Shown piece by piece: positions 2,907 to 43,810 of a stretch of DNA of 52,950 nucleotides; position 1 is the stretch's first letter, and the number at the start of each line of letters is the position of its first letter. Source of the stretch: Candidatus Bathyarchaeia archaeon (GTDB taxonomy: Archaea; Thermoproteota; Bathyarchaeia; Bathyarchaeales; Bathycorpusculaceae); the NCBI GenBank assembly GCA_038883795.1, contig JAVZLK010000008.1, forward strand, positions 1 through 52,950, read 5' to 3'. The notes under the pieces were generated by a model, which made no database searches, was not told the DNA's origin, and saw only the letters and a program-made list of their open reading frames with translations. The position numbers and the translations under genes were made by a program.

Positions 2907-3254
2907 TTGGGGCTTCATGTAACGCTAATGAAAGACAACTGGAGGCTTCGAAGGATCAGCGGCCTATTGATCATGAAGCGCAAGAAGGGTAATCAGTGGG
3001 CTTATTACATAGCAGTAAGAAGGGATGAAAAGGGCAAAAGGTACAGACACATCTACCTTACAAGCGTTCCGACAGACATAAGACATTACTTTATGGGTTC
3101 AGACACGGATTTACTTCAAAAGTATGCCACAGAAGACTTGAAAAAAGCTGGGTTCAAAATCCTAGAGTGGCATCCAGCCCCTCGAAAACCGCCAGCCCCA
3201 AGAAGAAAGCTGAAGACCAGGATTAGGCGTTTACTCGCGCGCTGGAAAGGTTAA
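2907..3254 (+). CDS. Basic hypothetical protein (mobile-element type)
   Basis: 115-aa ORF ending just before the att-like site; no family recognised. Confidence 0.5.
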   Translation: MGLHVTLMKDNWRLRRISGLLIMKRKKGNQWAYYIAVRRDEKGKRYRHIYLTSVPTDIRHYFMGSDTDLLQKYATEDLKKAGFKILEWHPAPRKPPAPRRKLKTRIRRLLARWKG

Positions 3255-3264
3255 TTTAGAATAA

Positions 3265-3306
3265 GGACTCGAACCCATTTGGGTTTAGTTCCCGGCGGGC
3301 CCGCCA
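3265..3306 (+). repeat. Degenerate tRNA 3'-half, probable attR of an integrated element
   Basis: GGG-TTTAGTT-CCCGG-CGGGCCC-G-CCA matches T-arm, acceptor strand and CCA of an archaeal GGGCCCG-starting tRNA (Lys/Arg-like); no 5' half present. Confidence 0.65.
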
Positions 3307-3447
3307 CCTAAAACCTACATGTTTCGAAACATCGTTTGGGGTGAGGCTTGATTAAGGGTTATTGTTCTTAGTTTTTGTTTGGAATTTTTGACCTATGTTG
3401 ACCAAAAATTTTATGAGAAACTCTTATATTTGTTTCGAAAAACAAAA

Positions 3448-4152
3448 ATGGTGCAACTATTGGACGATCAAGAAGTAATCGAGGTTTTAAGATCCTCCGG
3501 TAGACATTTCGGGCGGCTTTACCCTGTTCTTTTGGATAAACATGGAAACGTTATTGATGGTTTGCATAGGCTTGAGGCAGATCCAAACTGGCCTAGAATA
3601 AGACTTGATCACATAACATCAAGCGAAGACAGGCTTGTGGCAAGGCTCATCGCCAACGTTTGTAGGCGTAAAGTTTCAGCTGTGGAGAAAAGCCAAATGC
3701 TGGAGGAACTTGGAAAACTGTACATCAAAGCTGGAGTTAAGCCCGGAGCTGAATTAGCTCGAAAGATCTCTGGGGCGACGGGCATGAGTTTTAGGTGGGT
3801 TATGAAGTACTTGCCTGACAAACTTAAGGAGAGGCCTGGTGCAGGGGGATGGTCCAGAAGACCCAATTTGCCAAATGTAAAAGAATATTTATACACATGT
3901 AAAGTTGCACAACATACAACTGAATCTTTTGCGAAATTTTTGACGGCAGAACCCGCGAATAGGGTTTTAACCATTAAGAAGTATACTAACACAAACTTTG
4001 TTCAAATTCTGTTGGCAAAGCGATTTTACGAGGATGTCGATAGATTCGCTAAAGATTTAGGCACTACCGCTGAAATAATCATTAATAACGCTTTGATCTG
4101 GGCTGTGAGGAAACTTAAAGAATCTTTATCGTTAGATAGTTGTCCTTCTTAG
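3448..4152 (+). CDS. ParB/Srx N-terminal domain protein with HTH-like middle
   Basis: PVLLDKHGNVIDGLHRLEA and ANVCRR ParB motifs; ATG at 3448 preferred. Confidence 0.8.
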   Translation: MVQLLDDQEVIEVLRSSGRHFGRLYPVLLDKHGNVIDGLHRLEADPNWPRIRLDHITSSEDRLVARLIANVCRRKVSAVEKSQMLEELGKLYIKAGVKPGAELARKISGATGMSFRWVMKYLPDKLKERPGAGGWSRRPNLPNVKEYLYTCKVAQHTTESFAKFLTAEPANRVLTIKKYTNTNFVQILLAKRFYEDVDRFAKDLGTTAEIIINNALIWAVRKLKESLSLDSCPS

Positions 4153-4329
4153 GAAAGCTCTATGACCAACAAAACCTTAACTTGATCCACTAAGCTATGT
4201 TGAATAATTTTATTTCAAATGATAAAAACTCCCTATGTTTTGCTATTTAAAAAAGGTATAACTAAGAAGTTCGCGATAATACAAGATAATGCTTATAACA
4301 TAAACTTACGAGGAAATCCTCAGATAAAC

Positions 4330-36136: not shown

Positions 36137-36385
36137 CGTCCTTTTTATGGAATAGCGTATCGCTTGTTATATATATGTTGCGGGAAACCATCATTGGTAA
36201 ATAGTTTCCTTCTCTGCGCTTATTACCATAAATTACCGGGAAATGGTTTAAAAGTCTAACTTTAAAGTTAGAGTCGAAAAAGTAATTTAGGAGAAATAAT
36301 AATTTTTACATTCTAAAAACACGAAATAACCTTCCCGCGCATGTCTCTATAAAATGAAGAGACAATTGACGGTGATATAGATAAA

Positions 36386-36934
36386 ATGCCGAAGAAGGCA
36401 ATTATAGCTTCTTTACCGCTTCTTTTAATAGCTGTTATTCTAGTGTGTTGCATTAAAGAATACCGCATCCAAGAGGTTATTATAGACAAATGGGATCCCA
36501 TAACACCATCTGTGCTTGAGCCATACAATCAAACGGGGTGGGCTTTCGCAGTTTTAACATCAAATGGGACGTGTCTAGAACTTAATATTTCAGCCTCTGG
36601 TCGTGTGAGAATTATAATAGGTAAACTAGTTTACTTTAACGAAATCACGAGAGAAAGAACATATGATAACGTTGTTTTTAATGAAACAGGGACAAAATTT
36701 GTCCAAAAAGTTGAAATCGCCGAGAAAGACGTGGATTTTTTAGAAATTGAGAACAGAGAAACATGGTCCATTGAAATCTCCGGTAACATAAACAAAATAG
36801 GTAATGATTACCTACAATTTTATCCCTACTCAGGCATTGGGACGTTAATTGGGCTAGTGGGATTATCATTTTTAGTTTATGGAATTGTGGCGAAAGCAAA
36901 CAAAAAGAAAAAGAGAAACTTCAAGTATCACTAA
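36386..36934 (+). CDS. Hypothetical membrane-anchored protein
   Basis: N- and C-terminal hydrophobic helices; Lys-rich tail. Confidence 0.65.
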   Translation: MPKKAIIASLPLLLIAVILVCCIKEYRIQEVIIDKWDPITPSVLEPYNQTGWAFAVLTSNGTCLELNISASGRVRIIIGKLVYFNEITRERTYDNVVFNETGTKFVQKVEIAEKDVDFLEIENRETWSIEISGNINKIGNDYLQFYPYSGIGTLIGLVGLSFLVYGIVAKANKKKKRNFKYH

Positions 36935-37030
36935 TTTTTGGCAAATTAAAATTACAAAGTCTTTTATGTGTGCTTTAATCTTGTTATGTGTCGCTGCATT
37001 CATTCATCCCAATTCATACATTATTAAATA

Positions 37031-37043
37031 GCTAAATTTTTAT
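37031..37043 (+). repeat. Left 13-bp target-site duplication GCTAAATTTTTAT
   Basis: Identical to 40637-40649; directly abuts left TIR. Confidence 0.85.
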
Positions 37044-37106
37044 CCCCAAACCCACACACAGTCACAACCACACACAAACTTAGGCTAGACACGGTTTAGA
37101 CATGGT
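37044..37106 (+). repeat. Left terminal inverted repeat
   Basis: CCCCAAACCCA (11 bp perfect), then GTCACA, ACACACAAAC and ACATGG blocks shared in order with the reverse complement of 40563-40636. Confidence 0.75.
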
Positions 37107-37149
37107 TTCTGCCGAATAATCACAAGGATTTTGTTATATAATATTACGC

Positions 37150-38159
37150 GCACTATGTTTTTGTGTAGTCACGTAACCGATAACCTATAATTATCCCAAT
37201 TACAGTCAAAATTATAAACATCACAATATCAGATGTTTTCTGTAGAAGATAACTAGTAATTTTCTCCCATAATGTAGGTTCTCTTGTTAGTTCGGAATAT
37301 TTGTCCCATATTAGCGTTTTCATTTCCTCAGAAAGCCCTAACCTTTCTAATTCATGTAGATCATTGTAAAAATCCTCAGGATAGTCTTTGTAATATTTAT
37401 TATTGATATTTTCATTTATTTTTTCAAGTAATAGCGGTACTTTATGCTTAACCTCTATCTGTTTAATTATGGTTTCGTTAAATTGGTTTCAACAATCCCA
37501 AAAGAAATGTTTTAAAGCATCTAAACCAGCTTGGTAAGTTGACCATGCCTGTTTGGTATTCGCTCCCTTAATAATCAAACCTGATCTTGAAACCAATTCA
37601 CCAAATATTATTACAGCACCTTCACCCTCAATTTTAAATGGGCTCTCGCTTTCGCCCACATAATAGAGTGAAGCTTTTCGCTAACCGATAATAATGCAAA
37701 GTTTTTTATGCCTATCTGTGAGTCTAGAACGTAAGGTGACTCACTGCCTACAATTTTGACAACTTTTAGATTACTTAAATCGCTTGACATATTAGGCCAA
37801 AAATGATATTCTATTGATTTATCTATAAGTTTATAATCCCAGAGAGTTTCATTTGTTGTTGAATCATATTTAAAAGCGACAGCTGCACCATGATTTTTCG
37901 ACACGACTCCATAAACTTCTTTTGGGATATTGTTATATTTGAAAAACACGTGCCCAATATCATGAATTAAGTTTAGATTCTCTTCAGCAATCTCTTTGTA
38001 CTTACGTAAATATGTTTCAACATAACCTTTTAACTCTCTTTCGCTTACAACCTCAGATTTAGGCATCAATAGTACCGTACTGATTAAGACTATTATAGAA
38101 ATTATAAGTATTACTACAAGTGCAAATAATTTTTTCTCGGTCTTCAGTTTTTGATACAA
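37150..38159 (-). pseudogene. Interrupted secreted/membrane cargo protein
   Basis: ORF 37611-38159 with N-terminal TM; coding-like frame continues (IFGELVSRSG...FFWDC*NQFNETIIKQ...LWEKLLVIF) after a frameshift and an in-frame TGA. Confidence 0.55.
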
Positions 38160-38192
38160 CCCTAATCATTAATGAGTTTATGAAAATCACGG

Positions 38193-38210
38193 AAAAAGCT
38201 TCCGCTTTTT
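38193..38210 (-). terminator. Hairpin AAAAAGC-TTCC-GCTTTTT at the cas1 stop
   Basis: 7-bp inverted repeat with T-run immediately 3' of cas1. Confidence 0.4.
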
Positions 38211-39238
38211 TATCTAAATGAGGAGATTCTAGGTTTCCATGAGAGCCTTTCATTTCGGAGAAACTTAGCCAAAAGGTAAGTTTCCTCATTAATTAGGGTT
38301 TCAATTGTTTGGCTTTTTCCATGTTTAATTCTTGGAATATCAACCTTAGCCTCAAACAACCGATTGAGCTTTTCAGCTAATTCCCTAGTCTTTTCCATAC
38401 TCAGAACTTGACGCTTTCCAAGACGGTTAGAGCTGAACCATTCTTTTTTAACTGTGAAATCCTTAGGCTTTAAATCTTGACTAAATCCTATTAGAAAATC
38501 GTCTATGAGGTATCGGTATAATTCCATCATGTCGCAAACTAAACTAGGCTTACCAAACTGTTCGCTATGAACAAAACCGAGGTAAGGCTCTAGATGGGCA
38601 TTAAGAACTGCCATGTAAACCCTAAACTTAAGCATGATATAAGCTAAATTGAAAGTATTATTCAAACCATCATAGGCTTTCCATCCCTTACGTTTTTTAG
38701 CCTTGAAAGGTATCAGCTTAAGGATTTCATGATAATAATGCTCTGAAGCCTTTCCCTCAATAGGTAACAACCTTCTTCTAACATCCATAAGGCTATTAGA
38801 GTTTAAACCCTCACTCTTAGCTTTGAAATACGCTAAGTCAAGCTCTCTTAAGCCATATTTCCTTAAAACCATGTTTTGGCTCTCAATTTTGCTCAGAACT
38901 ATTGTTTTAGCTATGGCTATACCCTTGCCATTATGCAAGGCTTCATACTGAGCTATGCGAGTCTTAACATGGCTATCATCATCTAAGCTTCTGAGAACAG
39001 CCACGGGATTACCATTCCTAGTCTTAACAATAACGGGAATATCCCAGAAACCACAAGATGCCAAAACACTAGTGCTAACAAAATTCCCGCTTGAAACTAT
39101 TATCCTGCCTATCTCATTCTCAAATAACGGAACACGCTGAAGATTCCCATCCCTATCCCTAATAACGAAACAACCCTTCTCCATACCAAGATAATAGCCG
39201 TTACCTTCAACGTTAATAGTTAAAACCCTAGCCTTCAT
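38210..39238 (-). CDS. cas1: Solo Cas1 endonuclease/integrase (casposase-like)
   Basis: IEGKASEHYY (Glu), NNTFNLAY, LEPYLGFVH (His), SLVCDMMELYR (Asp/Glu); intact frame; ATG at 39238. Confidence 0.93.
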   Translation of the reverse strand: MKARVLTINVEGNGYYLGMEKGCFVIRDRDGNLQRVPLFENEIGRIIVSSGNFVSTSVLASCGFWDIPVIVKTRNGNPVAVLRSLDDDSHVKTRIAQYEALHNGKGIAIAKTIVLSKIESQNMVLRKYGLRELDLAYFKAKSEGLNSNSLMDVRRRLLPIEGKASEHYYHEILKLIPFKAKKRKGWKAYDGLNNTFNLAYIMLKFRVYMAVLNAHLEPYLGFVHSEQFGKPSLVCDMMELYRYLIDDFLIGFSQDLKPKDFTVKKEWFSSNRLGKRQVLSMEKTRELAEKLNRLFEAKVDIPRIKHGKSQTIETLINEETYLLAKFLRNERLSWKPRISSFR

Positions 39239-39458
39239 GAGGATAACCAACCTCTTTTAGTTGTTTCTCTAAACCTTCTAAGAATTTCTTCATGTAATCC
39301 TCATTCTCCAAACAATTTTTAATGATAAGCCATTCTGGATACCTTAAGAAATGGCTTTTAAACAGCTGGGAAGCGAAGCCATCTTCAAACCTACAGTATT
39401 TTTCAAAGAGAATTTGATGCTTCAGAAAATTTAATTCGCAGGTTAAAGTGTTCAGCAC
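39228..39458 (-). CDS. Small hypothetical protein overlapping the cas1 start
   Basis: Stop overlaps cas1 start by 11 nt; frame open to 39497; no Cas2 YD motif. Confidence 0.55.
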   Translation of the reverse strand: MLNTLTCELNFLKHQILFEKYCRFEDGFASQLFKSHFLRYPEWLIIKNCLENEDYMKKFLEGLEKQLKEVGYPHEG

Positions 39459-39880
39459 AATAGTTGCTATTTGCTCTTCAACAGGTTTTCGATAAGCCTA
39501 TGCGATATTGGAGTAGCGTACTCAAGGTTATTGCATGGATGGGAATCGTTGGAAACAACCTAAATTTATGGAAGTGGATGTGCATGCAAGCCATTAAAGG
39601 CTATTGCACTTTAAGGGTAAGCCCTAAACCTTTAAACCCTAATGGTTTTAAGCCTTCCCCAAGGGTTGCCTATCGTTATGGAAGCCAAAATAACATGGTT
39701 AAAGAGTATTTGGCTCTTAGGAAGCATGTTTTAAGGATACTTAAGCGATTATGTTAAGACAGATTGGAGAGAATGCAGAAAAGCACTCTTAGGAAAAGCG
39801 TAATCAAATCTTGATTTTTACTTTTTTACTTGCTTCAGCGGTATTTTTTCGAAATCTTCTCCCCTTACTGCAACTTTTAC

Positions 39881-40447
39881 TTAGTACTCTTTACCAGTCT
39901 CAAGTCTTATGAGATATTCAGAAGAAAATGATTTATTACCAACTGCCGCTTCAAAGGGGTGATATGGAAAGAGCAAAATAACTTTATCATTCTGCCTTAA
40001 CTCCTTTAGAGCACGTAGCGGATATCTTTCTCCTTCTAAAATCCAAGCGTATCCAATATGTGCATTAAAGGGTTTTTCCTCGGTACGCACAATTTTTTGT
40101 CCACGTATAGTTTCAATTTCAACATATAACAAGGAAGGAGTCTTACCTGAATCGTCTTTTATGTCAAAGCGTGCATCGATGTTTAAAGCTATTTTCTTCC
40201 CTTTATTTAATACCGTTGCAGTTAAATAATACCCTAAGCTATCATTCACTTGTTTTTTATCAAATCTTGCATTCTCAATTTTTAATACAACCCTAAGTTG
40301 AAAACAATAAGGAATTAAAGGCAAAATGATGGACAAAAGAGAAAAAATTACAGTTTCCCAATTTCCCAAAAATCCAATAGTTCTTAAATAAATCCATGCA
40401 ACGATAAGAAATGTGATGATTAATAAAGTTATTATTTTCCATCTCAA
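39881..40447 (-). CDS. Hypothetical membrane cargo protein, possibly with premature stop
   Basis: Two N-terminal TM helices then beta-rich domain; frame reads on past TAA as VKVAVRGEDFEK. Confidence 0.6.
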   Translation of the reverse strand: MRWKIITLLIITFLIVAWIYLRTIGFLGNWETVIFSLLSIILPLIPYCFQLRVVLKIENARFDKKQVNDSLGYYLTATVLNKGKKIALNIDARFDIKDDSGKTPSLLYVEIETIRGQKIVRTEEKPFNAHIGYAWILEGERYPLRALKELRQNDKVILLFPYHPFEAAVGNKSFSSEYLIRLETGKEY

Positions 40448-40562
40448 ATTTAAACGCCCTTTTTATTAATTTTGTCAAAGTCTTTTTATTTTTGTCTATT
40501 CAACTTTATTCCAATAATGTTGATTTGAATCATTAAAATAAGGAAAGTTAGATTTATAGTTG

Positions 40563-40636
40563 CCATGTTTGTTTGGTTGTCTGTGTTTGTGTGTCTGTGA
40601 CAGGGTAGGGTGTAGGTAACGGGTTTGGGTTTGGGG
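40563..40636 (-). repeat. Right terminal inverted repeat
   Basis: Ends TGGGTTTGGGG; G/T-rich; shares CCATGT, GTTTGTGTGT and TGTGAC with the left TIR. Confidence 0.75.
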
Positions 40637-40649
40637 GCTAAATTTTTAT
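40637..40649 (+). repeat. Right 13-bp target-site duplication GCTAAATTTTTAT
   Basis: Identical to 37031-37043; directly abuts right TIR. Confidence 0.85.
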
Positions 40650-40669
40650 TCATGTTGTATTTCTTTATA

Positions 40670-41548
40670 ATGCCTCTACAGGGGCTTGCAAGGTTGAGAA
40701 AGCGTAATTGGATACTCTTCATATCTATGATTCTTATGTGGGGTTCGAATTGGACAGTTATGAAAGTCGGGGTAAAATTCGTAGGTCCTCTAAACTTTGT
40801 AATGCAAAGGTTTTTTTTAGGTTTAATCGTTCTATTACCTATACTGCTCTTTAGGGGAAAAAAAATTCCAAGAGATAGTAAAGTATGGTTTAACCTCTGC
40901 ATACTTAGCTTCGTTCAAGCCGCGTGGGTATCCTTCACAAACATCGGTTTGATGTACGAAAGTTCTGGATTAAGTTCTCTACTAACTTATACTCAACCAC
41001 TGTTTGTTTTTTGTTTAGCCGTTCTGTTTTTGAAAGAAAGGGTTGGCATTATTAAAGTTATAGGTATTATGATAGGTTTTTTGGGCGTAGCCGTACTTTA
41101 TGCTGGAAGAATTTCTTTTTCTGTGAACGTCTTTAATTCATCATTATTCTTTTTAATTTTAGGGGCATTTCTTTGGGCTGTTACCGTCATTTACTATAAA
41201 AAATTTTTAAGCAACGTTGACCCTGTGCTTGTGAATATCGTTCAATTTTTTCTAGGTTTTGCCGTTATTTTTGCTATGGTTTTAATGTTTGAAGGATTGA
41301 CGTTTAGCGTTTCTCCATTGTATATTTTTGCCGTTTTATATGCATCAATTTTTGGGTCTGCTGTAGCATCAACCATATGGTTAATACTCATACGGGAAGA
41401 AGAAGCGACTATTGTCTCCGCTTCAAGCCTTGTTGTCCCAGTTACTGCATCATTATTTGGCTTAGTGTTTCTTGGTGAAGTTATTGACGCAATTTCGCTC
41501 TTAGGTTTCATTGTTACATTAACTGGCGTATACCTCGTAAACAAGTGA
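40670..41548 (+). CDS. EamA/DMT-family transporter
   Basis: MWGSNW; YTQPLF; about 10 TM helices; ORF-track start 40625 lies in the TIR, so true start is probably 40670 or 40694. Confidence 0.9.
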   Translation: MPLQGLARLRKRNWILFISMILMWGSNWTVMKVGVKFVGPLNFVMQRFFLGLIVLLPILLFRGKKIPRDSKVWFNLCILSFVQAAWVSFTNIGLMYESSGLSSLLTYTQPLFVFCLAVLFLKERVGIIKVIGIMIGFLGVAVLYAGRISFSVNVFNSSLFFLILGAFLWAVTVIYYKKFLSNVDPVLVNIVQFFLGFAVIFAMVLMFEGLTFSVSPLYIFAVLYASIFGSAVASTIWLILIREEEATIVSASSLVVPVTASLFGLVFLGEVIDAISLLGFIVTLTGVYLVNK

Positions 41549-42763: not shown

Positions 42764-43810
42764 ATGAGGTATGTGAGTGTTGATGTTGGCAAGGGGAAGT
42801 GTGTGGCTGCGTTTGTTGATGGGGATGGCGTTTTGGTTGATGAGTTCAGCTTTGCTAATGACTTTTCAGGGATTGGAATGTTTGTTGGTAGGCTTTGTGA
42901 AGGTGACATGGTTGTTATGGAGTCTACTGGCAATTTGTGGGTTAACCTTTTTGAGCTGTGGAGGGCCAGGGGCGTTAAGGCGGTTTTGGCTAATCCTTTG
43001 AAGATGAAGGCTATAGCTTCAGCGAAGATTAGGAATGATAAGGTTGATGCTAAGGTTTTAGCCTTTCTGTTGCGTAGTGGTCTTGTGGCTGAATGTTATG
43101 TTCCGCCAAAAGAGGTTAGGGAGTTGAGGGCTTTGGTTAGGCATAGAATGCAGCTTGTCCGTTCCGCCACAATAGTTAAAAATCGTGTTCACAGTTTGCT
43201 TGACAGGTACGGCGTTAAACATGGCTTTTCAGACCTTTTCGGAAAGGCTGGAATGGATTGGCTTAAAAAGCTTGAAGTTAAGCCTTTGGATAGGCTTCTA
43301 TTGGACAGCTTCATTGAACAGGTTGAATGTCTCAAAAGGCTAATAGGGAATGTTGATGGCGAGATTGGCCGTAGGGCATCCATTGATGGGGATGTTAGGC
43401 TTTTGCTTAGCTTGACCGGCGTTAACGTTTATTCAGCCCTTCTTATAAAAAGCGAAATCGGCGATATCAAGCGTTTTCCAAACTATAAGAAACTGATCAG
43501 CTGGGCTGGTTTGGCTCCTTTGGTTTATCAGTCTGGAAGTATTGAGAGGCGTGGGCATATAACGAAGCAGGGTTCTGCTGTTTTGAGGTGGGTTATGGTT
43601 GAATGCGCAAGATCAGCGGTTCGTTTTGATGATAAGCTTGGCGAGTTTTATGAGCGTGTCAAGCGTAGGCGTGGTGGGCAGAAGGCTTTAGTTGCTGTTG
43701 CTTGTAAGATGTTGAAGATTGTGTGGTTTATGTTGACTCGTGGGGAGCCTTACAGTTCTAGGAATTCTAGGCTTTATGGGGAAAAGCTTAAGAGGGTTTC
43801 TGGGTTTTAG
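42764..43810 (+). CDS. IS110-family DEDD transposase/recombinase
   Basis: SVDVGK; MESTG; NDKVDA; AGLAP..YQSG; ITKQG; VAVACK. Confidence 0.95.
   Translation: MRYVSVDVGKGKCVAAFVDGDGVLVDEFSFANDFSGIGMFVGRLCEGDMVVMESTGNLWVNLFELWRARGVKAVLANPLKMKAIASAKIRNDKVDAKVLAFLLRSGLVAECYVPPKEVRELRALVRHRMQLVRSATIVKNRVHSLLDRYGVKHGFSDLFGKAGMDWLKKLEVKPLDRLLLDSFIEQVECLKRLIGNVDGEIGRRASIDGDVRLLLSLTGVNVYSALLIKSEIGDIKRFPNYKKLISWAGLAPLVYQSGSIERRGHITKQGSAVLRWVMVECARSAVRFDDKLGEFYERVKRRRGGQKALVAVACKMLKIVWFMLTRGEPYSSRNSRLYGEKLKRVSGF

Follow-up and report, generated by a model that had tools for sequence, protein, structure and literature searches.

A probable internal-deletion derivative of a family of small Cas1 transposons in a Bathyarchaeia genome

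The window copy and its termini

The subject of this study is a cas1-bearing element in a 52,950-nt stretch of DNA from a Candidatus Bathyarchaeia archaeon (contig JAVZLK010000008.1, assembly GCA_038883795.1), the whole of which we call the window; it is contig C8 of the 2.18-Mb, 81-contig assembly of genome G000, which is 87% complete. A 13-nt target-site duplication (TSD) encloses an element of 3,593 bp (37044–40636) whose ends, directly inside the 13-mers, are perfect terminal inverted repeats (TIRs) of 11 nt, and which holds an intact cas1 together with the stumps of two other genes. We consider it highly probable that a Bathyarchaeia family of small transposons, mobilised by a Cas1 of the family 5 type, is represented here by an integrated copy with an internal deletion. 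The open reading frames (ORFs) and other features of the locus are as follows.

37031–37043, no strand: left TSD copy, GCTAAATTTTTAT, 13 nt, an exact copy of 40637–40649 that fits the family pattern nnTAAAnTTTWAy
37044–37054, plus strand: left TIR tip, CCCCAAACCCA, 1.5 CCCAAA units, continued by a C/A-rich subterminal region to about 37080
37611–38159, minus strand: cargo ORF, 182 aa, one N-terminal hydrophobic anchor by hydropathy, no Pfam match at E ≤ 0.1
38210–39250, minus strand: intact cas1, family-5-type casposase, 346 aa from a TTG at 39250, PF01867 E 3.8e-44
39228–39458, minus strand: stump of a winged-helix gene, 76 aa, overlapping the cas1 start, homologous to a 190-aa ORF at L040:7451–8023, with the N-terminal winged helix-turn-helix (wHTH) part deleted
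39464–39757, plus strand: 97-aa ORF, C-terminal stump of a gene resembling archaeo-eukaryotic primases (AEP-like), homologous over 39479–39751 (profile positions 63–146 of 151)
39484–39488, no strand: junction of an internal deletion, about 1.68 kb lost relative to the closest complete relative, the L040 element
39881–40447, minus strand: cargo ORF, 188 aa, two N-terminal hydrophobic segments by hydropathy, no Pfam match at E ≤ 0.1
40621–40636, minus strand: right TIR tip, reverse complement CCCCAAACCCAAACCC, 2.5 CCCAAA units, the outermost 11 bases pairing perfectly with the left tip
40637–40649, no strand: right TSD copy, 13 nt, followed at a distance of 2, 5 or 20 nt by candidate start codons of the adjacent EamA transporter gene (PF00892, E 9.9e-45)

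The preliminary description of this DNA had proposed a TIR and TSD at these positions, and a 13-nt direct repeat directly flanking a perfect 11-nt inverted repeat is indeed present. From 37031 the left junction reads ...AAATA GCTAAATTTTTAT CCCCAAACCCACACAC..., with the TIR CCCCAAACCCA directly after the 13-mer; the right junction (40621–40649) reads ...GGGTTTGGGTTTGGGG GCTAAATTTTTAT TCATG..., the second 13-mer being directly preceded by TGGGTTTGGGG. The exact 13-mer occurs only at these two places in the window. Taken alone it is weak evidence: with up to one mismatch, 2 matches compare with 0.52 expected, and 10 of 100 shuffles also reach 2. A 13-mer direct repeat combined with a directly adjacent inverted 8-mer is seen once in the window and once in total over 200 dinucleotide shuffles. 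The termini gain their real weight from the relatives described below, because these share the same end structure. A further proposal, that the inverted repeats continue imperfectly for 60–75 bp, has to be withdrawn: on gapped local alignment the two 110-nt ends match best when shifted by 36 nt, with a score that 11 of 500 composition shuffles also reach, so that the supposed extension is a C/A-rich composition common to both subterminal regions, with no registered repeat.

Inside these ends, Pfam scanning of 8 ORFs returned no PolB, Cas2 or transposase; the element also contains no CRISPR array, in agreement with the preliminary description, as is the presence of two membrane cargo genes, here seen as ORFs with N-terminal hydrophobic segments. 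The cargo regions have no DNA similarity to relatives, including the closest one (L040). The small ORF said to overlap cas1 does overlap its start, but is in fact the remnant of the winged-helix gene. Because relatives begin MKAK..., translation of cas1 probably starts at the ATG at 39238.

Relatives, ends and target sites

Matches to cas1 were found in 19 of 41 genomes of the same order (G000 counted). Full-length, uninterrupted Cas1 proteins, 48–69% identical, are encoded in G001, G008, G012, G021 (two), G023 and G030; near-complete or shorter copies also occur in G008 (86% identical over residues 95–344) and G021, and short C-terminal fragments are scattered through many of the 41. Inspection of homologous solo cas1 loci for matching termini, a check put forward at the outset, was positive: (CCCAAA)n-type tips and 13-nt direct repeats bracket cas1 at the loci that we fetched. 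A metagenome scan added at least 486 relatives, from which 80 loci were kept and searched for any TIR of at least 8 nt with an 11–15-nt flanking repeat around cas1, a search blind to the tip sequence. With four rows left out (L042, on the same contig as L028; L107, with the size and TSD of L106; and the dubious L079 and L080), the set comprises 28 delimited elements of 1,520–7,272 bp. The family is a large one with Bathyarchaeia hosts; viral contigs gave no family match in a search with single-protein patterns.

When the two junctions of each of the 28 elements are compared, the longest exact direct repeat measures 13 nt in 9 cases, 14 nt in 10 and 15–19 nt in 7. Lengths above 13 nt arise because a terminal C/G can be assigned to TSD or TIR alike, an overlap of terminal bases likewise seen in classical casposons (PMC4046053). 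The target sequences are AT-rich, with a rough palindromic symmetry about the seventh base (for example GTTAAAATTTAAC, ATTAAAATTTAAT, ATAAAAGTTTTAT and GCTAAATTTTTAT), following the pattern already given for the window copy, and the insertions are intergenic in 10 of 10 cases checked. We had entertained a promoter TATA box as the target; because distances from TSD to gene start range from 2 to over 1,000 nt, this was dropped and only the intergenic location kept.

At their tips the elements carry tandem repeats of a short unit, (CCCAAA)n in 24 cases, (TCCT)n in 2, (CCCAA)n in 2 (L106 and L123) and (CA)n in 1. Being C-rich, they give a G-rich 3′ strand, as in telomeres; the family end that we propose for oligonucleotide substrates is ...TTTGGGTTTGGG-3′. 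TIRs of relatives extend to 108 nt. The number of tip units is often unequal between the two ends of one element, even when the TIRs otherwise agree throughout: in L046, 2 units face 3 although the other TIR positions match at 74 of 74, L040 has 4 against 3, and unequal CCCAAA numbers recur in L044, L034, L027 and the window copy (37044–37054 against 40621–40636). Nor does the repeat type follow Cas1 phylogeny, an expectation that we rejected, as types switch between closely related Cas1s (6 label changes on the Cas1 tree, where 4 is the minimum possible). Given both observations, the tips look evolutionarily labile. Several elements stand in head-to-tail arrays in which neighbours, sometimes of different tip types, share a single 13-nt target (L030, at L030:6549–6560, and L085, L089, L093, L106 and L142).

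Comparison of occupied and empty sites reveals the duplication. A sister element in the congeneric genome G001 (5,473 bp, Cas1 69% identical to that of the window) carries ATAAAAGTTTTAT on both flanks. The site is unoccupied in four other members of the genus, G000 among them. These flanks are contiguous in G000:C7, G002:C18 and G003:C12, overlapping by exactly one 13-mer, ATAAAAGTTTTAT, which in G002:C18 is ATAAAAGGTTTAT (one substitution); in G004:C1 the left flank and 13-mer are present and the contig ends 6 nt beyond the 13-mer. Members of the family thus insert with a 13-bp duplication. The empty-site comparison advocated in the preliminary description is therefore answered for the sister element, but none was found for the window copy. 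Among 12 related genomes there is no synteny of the window flanks (the EamA gene and the left-flank ORF have 2 matches each, on different contigs), and the flanks of another G000 copy, on contig C49, were not found in G001–G004. Four hot-spring runs were compared over 36300–41300: contigs of X1, the probable source metagenome, span both junctions, and no joint skipping 37044–40636 was seen, contigs being blind to rare variants.

Those runs also yielded two incidental observations. At 40624 an X1 contig leaves the right tip into other DNA (...GGGTTTGGGG followed by ATAAAAATTAAAA), and is another copy at another AT-rich site; in another hot-spring run, X3, which holds many related elements, summed contig depth reaches 334 over cas1 only (38300–39800). 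To the left of the window copy lies a 182-aa ORF (36386–36934) in no Pfam family, with two paralogues in the genome at 49–55% identity (G000:C13:32391–32897 and G000:C49:679–1215); some 3.3 kb separate one of these paralogues from the C49 element.

Cas1 of the element

The window Cas1 was described from the start as intact, with a catalytic E/H/D set, and this is borne out. All 26 family members that were aligned share its catalytic residues E165, H228, D240 and E243, which correspond to E141, H208, D218 and D221 of E. coli Cas1 (numbers from PMC4046053). The generic model TIGR00287 matches with 170.8 bits (cut-off 71.7) over residues 12–335 of 346, a coverage that leaves no room for an extra domain such as a C-terminal HTH, and none of 8 subtype-specific Cas1 models reaches its cut-off. 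The best match among solved structures (phmmer) is the CRISPR Cas1 of Archaeoglobus fulgidus (4n06, E 3.8e-19, 72 bits), with the E/H/D/E residues aligned; the Methanosarcina mazei casposase (6opm) scores lower (E 8.4e-10, 41 bits). In a tree of the element Cas1s and five further Cas1 homologues from related Bathyarchaeia genomes (27–30% identical; presumed CRISPR-type), the element proteins group as a single, separate clade with 100/100 support.

Cas1 is the sole protein found in all elements (28 of 28, by construction of the set). Pfam scans of element ORFs (8 from the window copy, then 24, 15 and 63, the last being ORFs of at least 150 aa from 24 elements) matched no PolB, DDE transposase, tyrosine recombinase or serine recombinase family, and the longest open frame, stop to stop, in any of the 28 elements is a type I restriction–modification (R-M) methylase of 545 codons. 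A strict casposon, as reportedly defined by Krupovic et al. in 2014, is a self-synthesizing transposon with Cas1 and PolB. A Cas1 with the four catalytic residues of an integrase, TIRs and a TSD are all present here, and a family B DNA polymerase is encoded neither by the window ORFs nor in the 28 delimited elements.

Cas1 is the likely integrase of the family, because it is conserved, no other candidate is present and the 13-bp duplication fits a casposase. Were it instead a passenger, another transposase would have to mobilise the ends in trans, and a transposase-like ORF of 348 aa does lie 2 kb to the right of the element (42764–43810, plus strand); we take it to resemble an IS110-type transposase, a family assignment from its translation only. 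No protein but Cas1, however, is shared by all 28 elements, which come from many genomes and metagenomes, and no transposase family appeared inside any; remnants consist of a tip and the cas1 3′ end; and the 13-nt duplication matches casposase geometry as given in the available casposase literature. We regard the passenger reading as very improbable.

A second alternative would make the window cas1 a host gene for CRISPR adaptation, flanked by repeats through coincidence. G000 does hold a CRISPR array (C30:19204–19467, at the contig end, with at least 4 repeats of 37 nt, GTAGCAATGACTCC...GAAAC, and 36-nt spacers), and its assembly, 87% complete as noted, contains no other intact cas1, nor a CRISPR-type one. 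That array, however, is on another contig; no other cas genes and no array adjoin the window cas1; Cas2 (PF09827) has 0 matches in the assembly, where the same search was positive in 6 of 14 control genomes; and no subtype-specific Cas1 model recognises the protein, which therefore has neither the neighbours nor the model assignment of a CRISPR adaptation module. At 27 other sites, moreover, this gene is enclosed by the same kind of tips and TSDs, and one of these sites is empty in close relatives. A host CRISPR gene is extremely unlikely.

A conserved AEP-like gene and variable cargo

ORF clustering of 12 elements recovered cas1 in 12, a 142–175-aa protein in 9 and a neighbouring 100–170-aa protein in 8. 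By profile search, the gene of the 142–175-aa protein (about 150 aa, here called AEP-like) is present in 25 of the 28 elements; C49, L028 and L034 lack it, L040 carries it with a frameshift and the window copy in truncated form. The AEP-like protein has 510 database clusters, all unnamed. Across 43 complete members D35 and D37 are invariant (a DxD motif), and H71, 34 residues on, is at least 90% conserved; no third conserved acidic position (motif III) is evident in the alignment summary. The window stump keeps only the non-catalytic C-terminal part, without the motif-bearing half. An AlphaFold model (pLDDT 84) predicts an RRM-like fold, whose VIA-align neighbours are mostly AEPs (2fao, Z 7.0; 8iqb, 6.3; 3h20, 5.8; 6zp9, 5.5; 7nqd, 5.0), at values of Z 5–7 that fall below the safe level of 8. 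PF24387 ('primase 1D-like') matches 5 of 7 full-length members at 15–24 bits against a cut-off of 27, and the nearest named cluster in an Atlas search is 'primase 1D family' (score 0.94). Foldseek gave no match for the model at E ≤ 0.001, and the profile searched against PDB sequences found only an irrelevant cyclophilin (E 0.16). The small conserved protein likely belongs to the AEP superfamily. It would be akin to the small AEPs of the 'primase 1D-like' family PF24387, the LigD polymerase domain, RepB′ and PrimPols, and differs from known AEPs in being only about 150 aa long and in its Pfam scores below cut-off.

A wHTH gene recurs directly upstream of cas1, with wHTH/ArsR-type matches in the N-terminal part of the relatives' proteins. 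Together with the AEP-like gene in 25 of 28 elements, it suggests that the family may have its own replication protein. The remaining gene content varies: cargo of relatives includes R-M, Mrr, Schlafen/AlbA, rhomboid and lipocalin genes and is often defensive. At four loci (L106:4421–6974, L089:8108–8680, L046:4722–5885 and L028:10437–10955) we observed defence-type and other accessory genes, namely a type I R-M methylase with S subunit, an Mrr-type endonuclease, a Schlafen/AlbA_2 protein and a SAM methyltransferase. L028 itself, a 2.8-kb element of G008, encodes a 321-aa Cas1 (L028:9460–10425) with an internal gap (profile positions 75–90 missing); though it has no AEP-like gene, its tips are clean and its TSD is 13–14 nt.

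The frequency of the AEP-like gene also bears on another view of the family, as small integrative replicons of plasmid- or virus-like nature, in which the AEP-like protein would replicate an excised, possibly linear form with telomere-like ends and Cas1 would serve as integrase. The unequal numbers of tip repeats within single elements (L046 and L040 among them) and the change of repeat type between closely related Cas1s would suit such a form, as would the many metagenome contigs of the family that measure only 1–7 kb, although repeated elements also yield short contigs in assemblies. Every delimited copy, on the other hand, is integrated, with host flanks and a TSD, and Pfam scans of element ORFs found no capsid, partition or conjugation genes; we hold the replicon view to be possible and doubt it. 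A bolder version, which we consider rather improbable and offer as a conjecture, is that self-replicating Cas1 elements arose in a second and independent form, here an 'AEP-casposon' that would be linear after excision. Slippage of its own mini primase-polymerase would keep or re-synthesise, in telomere-like fashion, G-rich 3′ ends of (TTTGGG)n, (TTGGG)n, (AGGA)n or (TG)n. Such an element, if real, would be either a CRISPR Cas1 reverted to a transposase or, among mobile elements living today, the nearest kin of the CRISPR adaptation integrase, because in sequence searches its Cas1 is nearer to CRISPR Cas1 than the solved family 2 casposase is.

Internal deletion of the window copy

The closest complete relative of the window copy is the L040 element, with cas1 DNA 89% identical. 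Window positions 39746–39484 align with 1129–1390 of that element and 39488–38229 with 3066–4325, revealing the loss of the N-terminal half of the AEP-like gene with its DxD and H motifs, two small genes and the wHTH domain. What remains at the junction are the two stumps (AEP-like, 39464–39757, plus strand; winged-helix, 39228–39458, minus strand), and the AEP-like stump is the sole match to that gene in the assembly. The window copy is, on this alignment, an internal-deletion derivative and not a native compact design. The idea of a compact, IS-like transposon, advanced in the preliminary description, is accordingly given up: about 1.68 kb is missing from a family in which the AEP-like gene is nearly always present and the wHTH gene recurrent.

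The genome holds three further cas1 copies, all broken. One is a 1.5-kb element (C49:4537–6056) with CCCAAACCC tips, its own 12–13-nt duplication ATAAAAATATAT and a frameshifted cas1; on C35 a single tip, CCCCAAACCCAAACCC..., stands beside the last 42 codons of cas1; C28 carries a cas1 pseudogene.

Is the window copy, then, a dead relic of a mobile family, its cas1 intact only through the recency of its decay, its wHTH and AEP-like functions gone and its subterminal repeats eroded? The deletion of about 1.68 kb, the 11 nt of in-register TIR, the lack of an intact AEP-like gene in the genome and the degraded state of the other cas1 copies would all fit. Yet cas1 is open over 346 codons with its four catalytic residues, the TSD copies are identical at 13 of 13 positions, and C49, L028 and L034 have clean TSDs without an AEP-like gene; a family 1 casposase, moreover, integrates very short and varied ends in vitro (PMC8464041, partial text). 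The relic reading comes close to having an even chance of being right, and that the window copy can still move is a proposition that we place just below the midpoint.

Relation to known Cas1 elements

The Cas1 of the window is of a type already published, so that the 'undescribed class' of the preliminary description does not hold. 'Family 5' casposases were proposed from hot-spring metagenomes by Salgado et al. 2022 (Front Microbiol 13:1069452, PMC9755687). In the available text of that paper they are solo Cas1s that share over 50% identity, branch beside subtype I-A Cas1 and outside families 1–4, keep the catalytic residues, mostly lack PolB (5 of 6 members) and have TIRs in some contigs, and the authors read the elements as 'non-self-replicative transposons'. 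Our scores against 4n06 and 6opm, the Cas1 model results and the separate clade of element Cas1s are in keeping with that position. Compared by eye, the window Cas1 shares long identical runs with Cas1_938 and Cas1_1200 (Table_3 of PMC9755687, in the part available), at about 80% identity; BLASTP puts the database protein P0125 at 79% identity to that of the window, and by eye it is about 90% identical to Cas1_1200. On these by-eye comparisons with published members, we assign the window Cas1 to the family 5 casposase type. Like the family 5 proteins of the available text, it has no cas neighbours, PolB or C-terminal HTH, retains its catalytic residues and comes from a Thermoproteota hot-spring source; it differs from the published description in belonging to a deletion derivative.

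The available main text of PMC9755687 mentions no TSD, element boundaries, target motif, empty site or host range, nor the word 'primase'. New for the family are its exact boundaries, the 13-bp TSD, the palindromic AT-rich target, telomere-like variable tips, tandem arrays, empty sites, the Bathyarchaeia host and the AEP-like core gene. Our literature search turned up no account of a Cas1 element that carries an AEP gene or has telomere-like tips; a 2023 casposon review and a 2023 methods paper leave PolB-less elements unmentioned, and a 2023 paper calls the Cas1 and PolB genes both ubiquitous in casposons (PMC9966878).

Family 1 casposons (Nitrosopumilus, for example NitAR1-C1) resemble the window family in a casposase without HTH, a 13-bp TSD, a partly symmetric, sequence-specific target and lax end requirements (PMC8464041, partial text). 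According to the same partial text, the HTH-less family 1 casposase of Ca. N. koreensis gives a 13-bp TSD in vitro and family 2 about 14 bp. Family 1 has, in the literature as available to us, a protein-primed PolB with conserved neighbours and targets mostly the 3′ end of ef-2, whereas the window family combines intergenic AT-rich palindromic targets, a conserved AEP-like gene and short tandem-repeat tips with the absence of PolB. Tandem insertion into one target is described for families 1 and 2 (PMC6563490, partial text), and the arrays reported here are alike. Family 2 casposons (Aciduliprofundum boonei, Methanosarcina mazei) also share Cas1-driven integration, TIRs, a TSD (theirs about 14–15 bp), tandem arrays, accessory HTH proteins and variable defence-type cargo, but are 8–20 kb long, with an RNA-primed-type PolB, an HNH nuclease, an HTH fused to the casposase and, often, tRNA gene targets. 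Archaeal class 1 CRISPR Cas1 (4n06) has the same architecture, with E/H/D/E aligned and TIGR00287 passed; unlike it, the window Cas1 has no Cas2, adjacent array or other cas genes and sits between TIRs and TSDs.

Discussion

In the reading that we favour, the window element belongs to a family of small transposons mobilised by Cas1, as an integrated copy with an internal deletion. Members would move as follows. After excision or copying, a Cas1 oligomer would bind the element ends, whose 3′ strands finish in G-rich short tandem repeats (...TTTGGGTTTGGGG-3′); the two 3′-OH ends would each attack one strand of an AT-rich, roughly palindromic target, at positions 13 bp apart, and gap repair by the host would leave the 13-bp duplication. 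Each insertion would regenerate the target on both sides, and element arrays can therefore accumulate at one site. In the family gene set an AEP-like protein takes the position that PolB has in classical casposons, a wHTH gene recurs upstream of cas1 and the cargo varies; the window copy has kept an intact cas1 and both tips, has lost the AEP-like catalytic half, two small genes and the wHTH domain, and carries two membrane-anchored cargo ORFs.

Several observations weigh against this reading. The in-register TIR of the window copy is only 11 nt, against 73–108 nt in some relatives, and neither an empty site nor an excision joint was found for the copy itself in the genomes and runs compared above. 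It looks decayed, with its internal deletion, no intact AEP-like gene in the genome and other genomic cas1 copies all broken. In the family at large, a TIR and TSD pair was detected at only 18 of the 80 metagenome loci, 2 of which (L079 and L080) look spurious, many of the 80 contigs being too short to hold both ends; L048 has a flanking repeat of only 10 nt and L141 no exact repeat (one mismatch). The assignment of Cas1 as the presumed integrase, finally, draws on conservation and on the absence of another candidate.

As a decayed member, the window copy is of limited interest alone; the family reaches further. The favoured view derives the CRISPR adaptation machinery from casposons, which have so far been characterised by Cas1 plus PolB. 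Here is an abundant family (at least 486 metagenome relatives and 510 AEP-like clusters) of small, PolB-less elements whose Cas1 scores higher against 4n06 than against the M. mazei casposase. Small and abundant as it is, and without PolB, it offers a compact system for in vitro tests of how Cas1 chooses ends and target, with a 13-bp stagger, a palindromic AT-rich target and simple tips. CRISPR-associated Prim-Pol (CAPP) is another AEP genetically linked to Cas1 (PMC8211822, partial text); the recurrent Cas1–AEP linkage of the family parallels these CRISPR-associated Prim-Pols and leads one to ask whether integration by Cas1 is inherently tied to DNA synthesis. The family could help to decide in which direction Cas1 moved, from transposon to CRISPR or the reverse.

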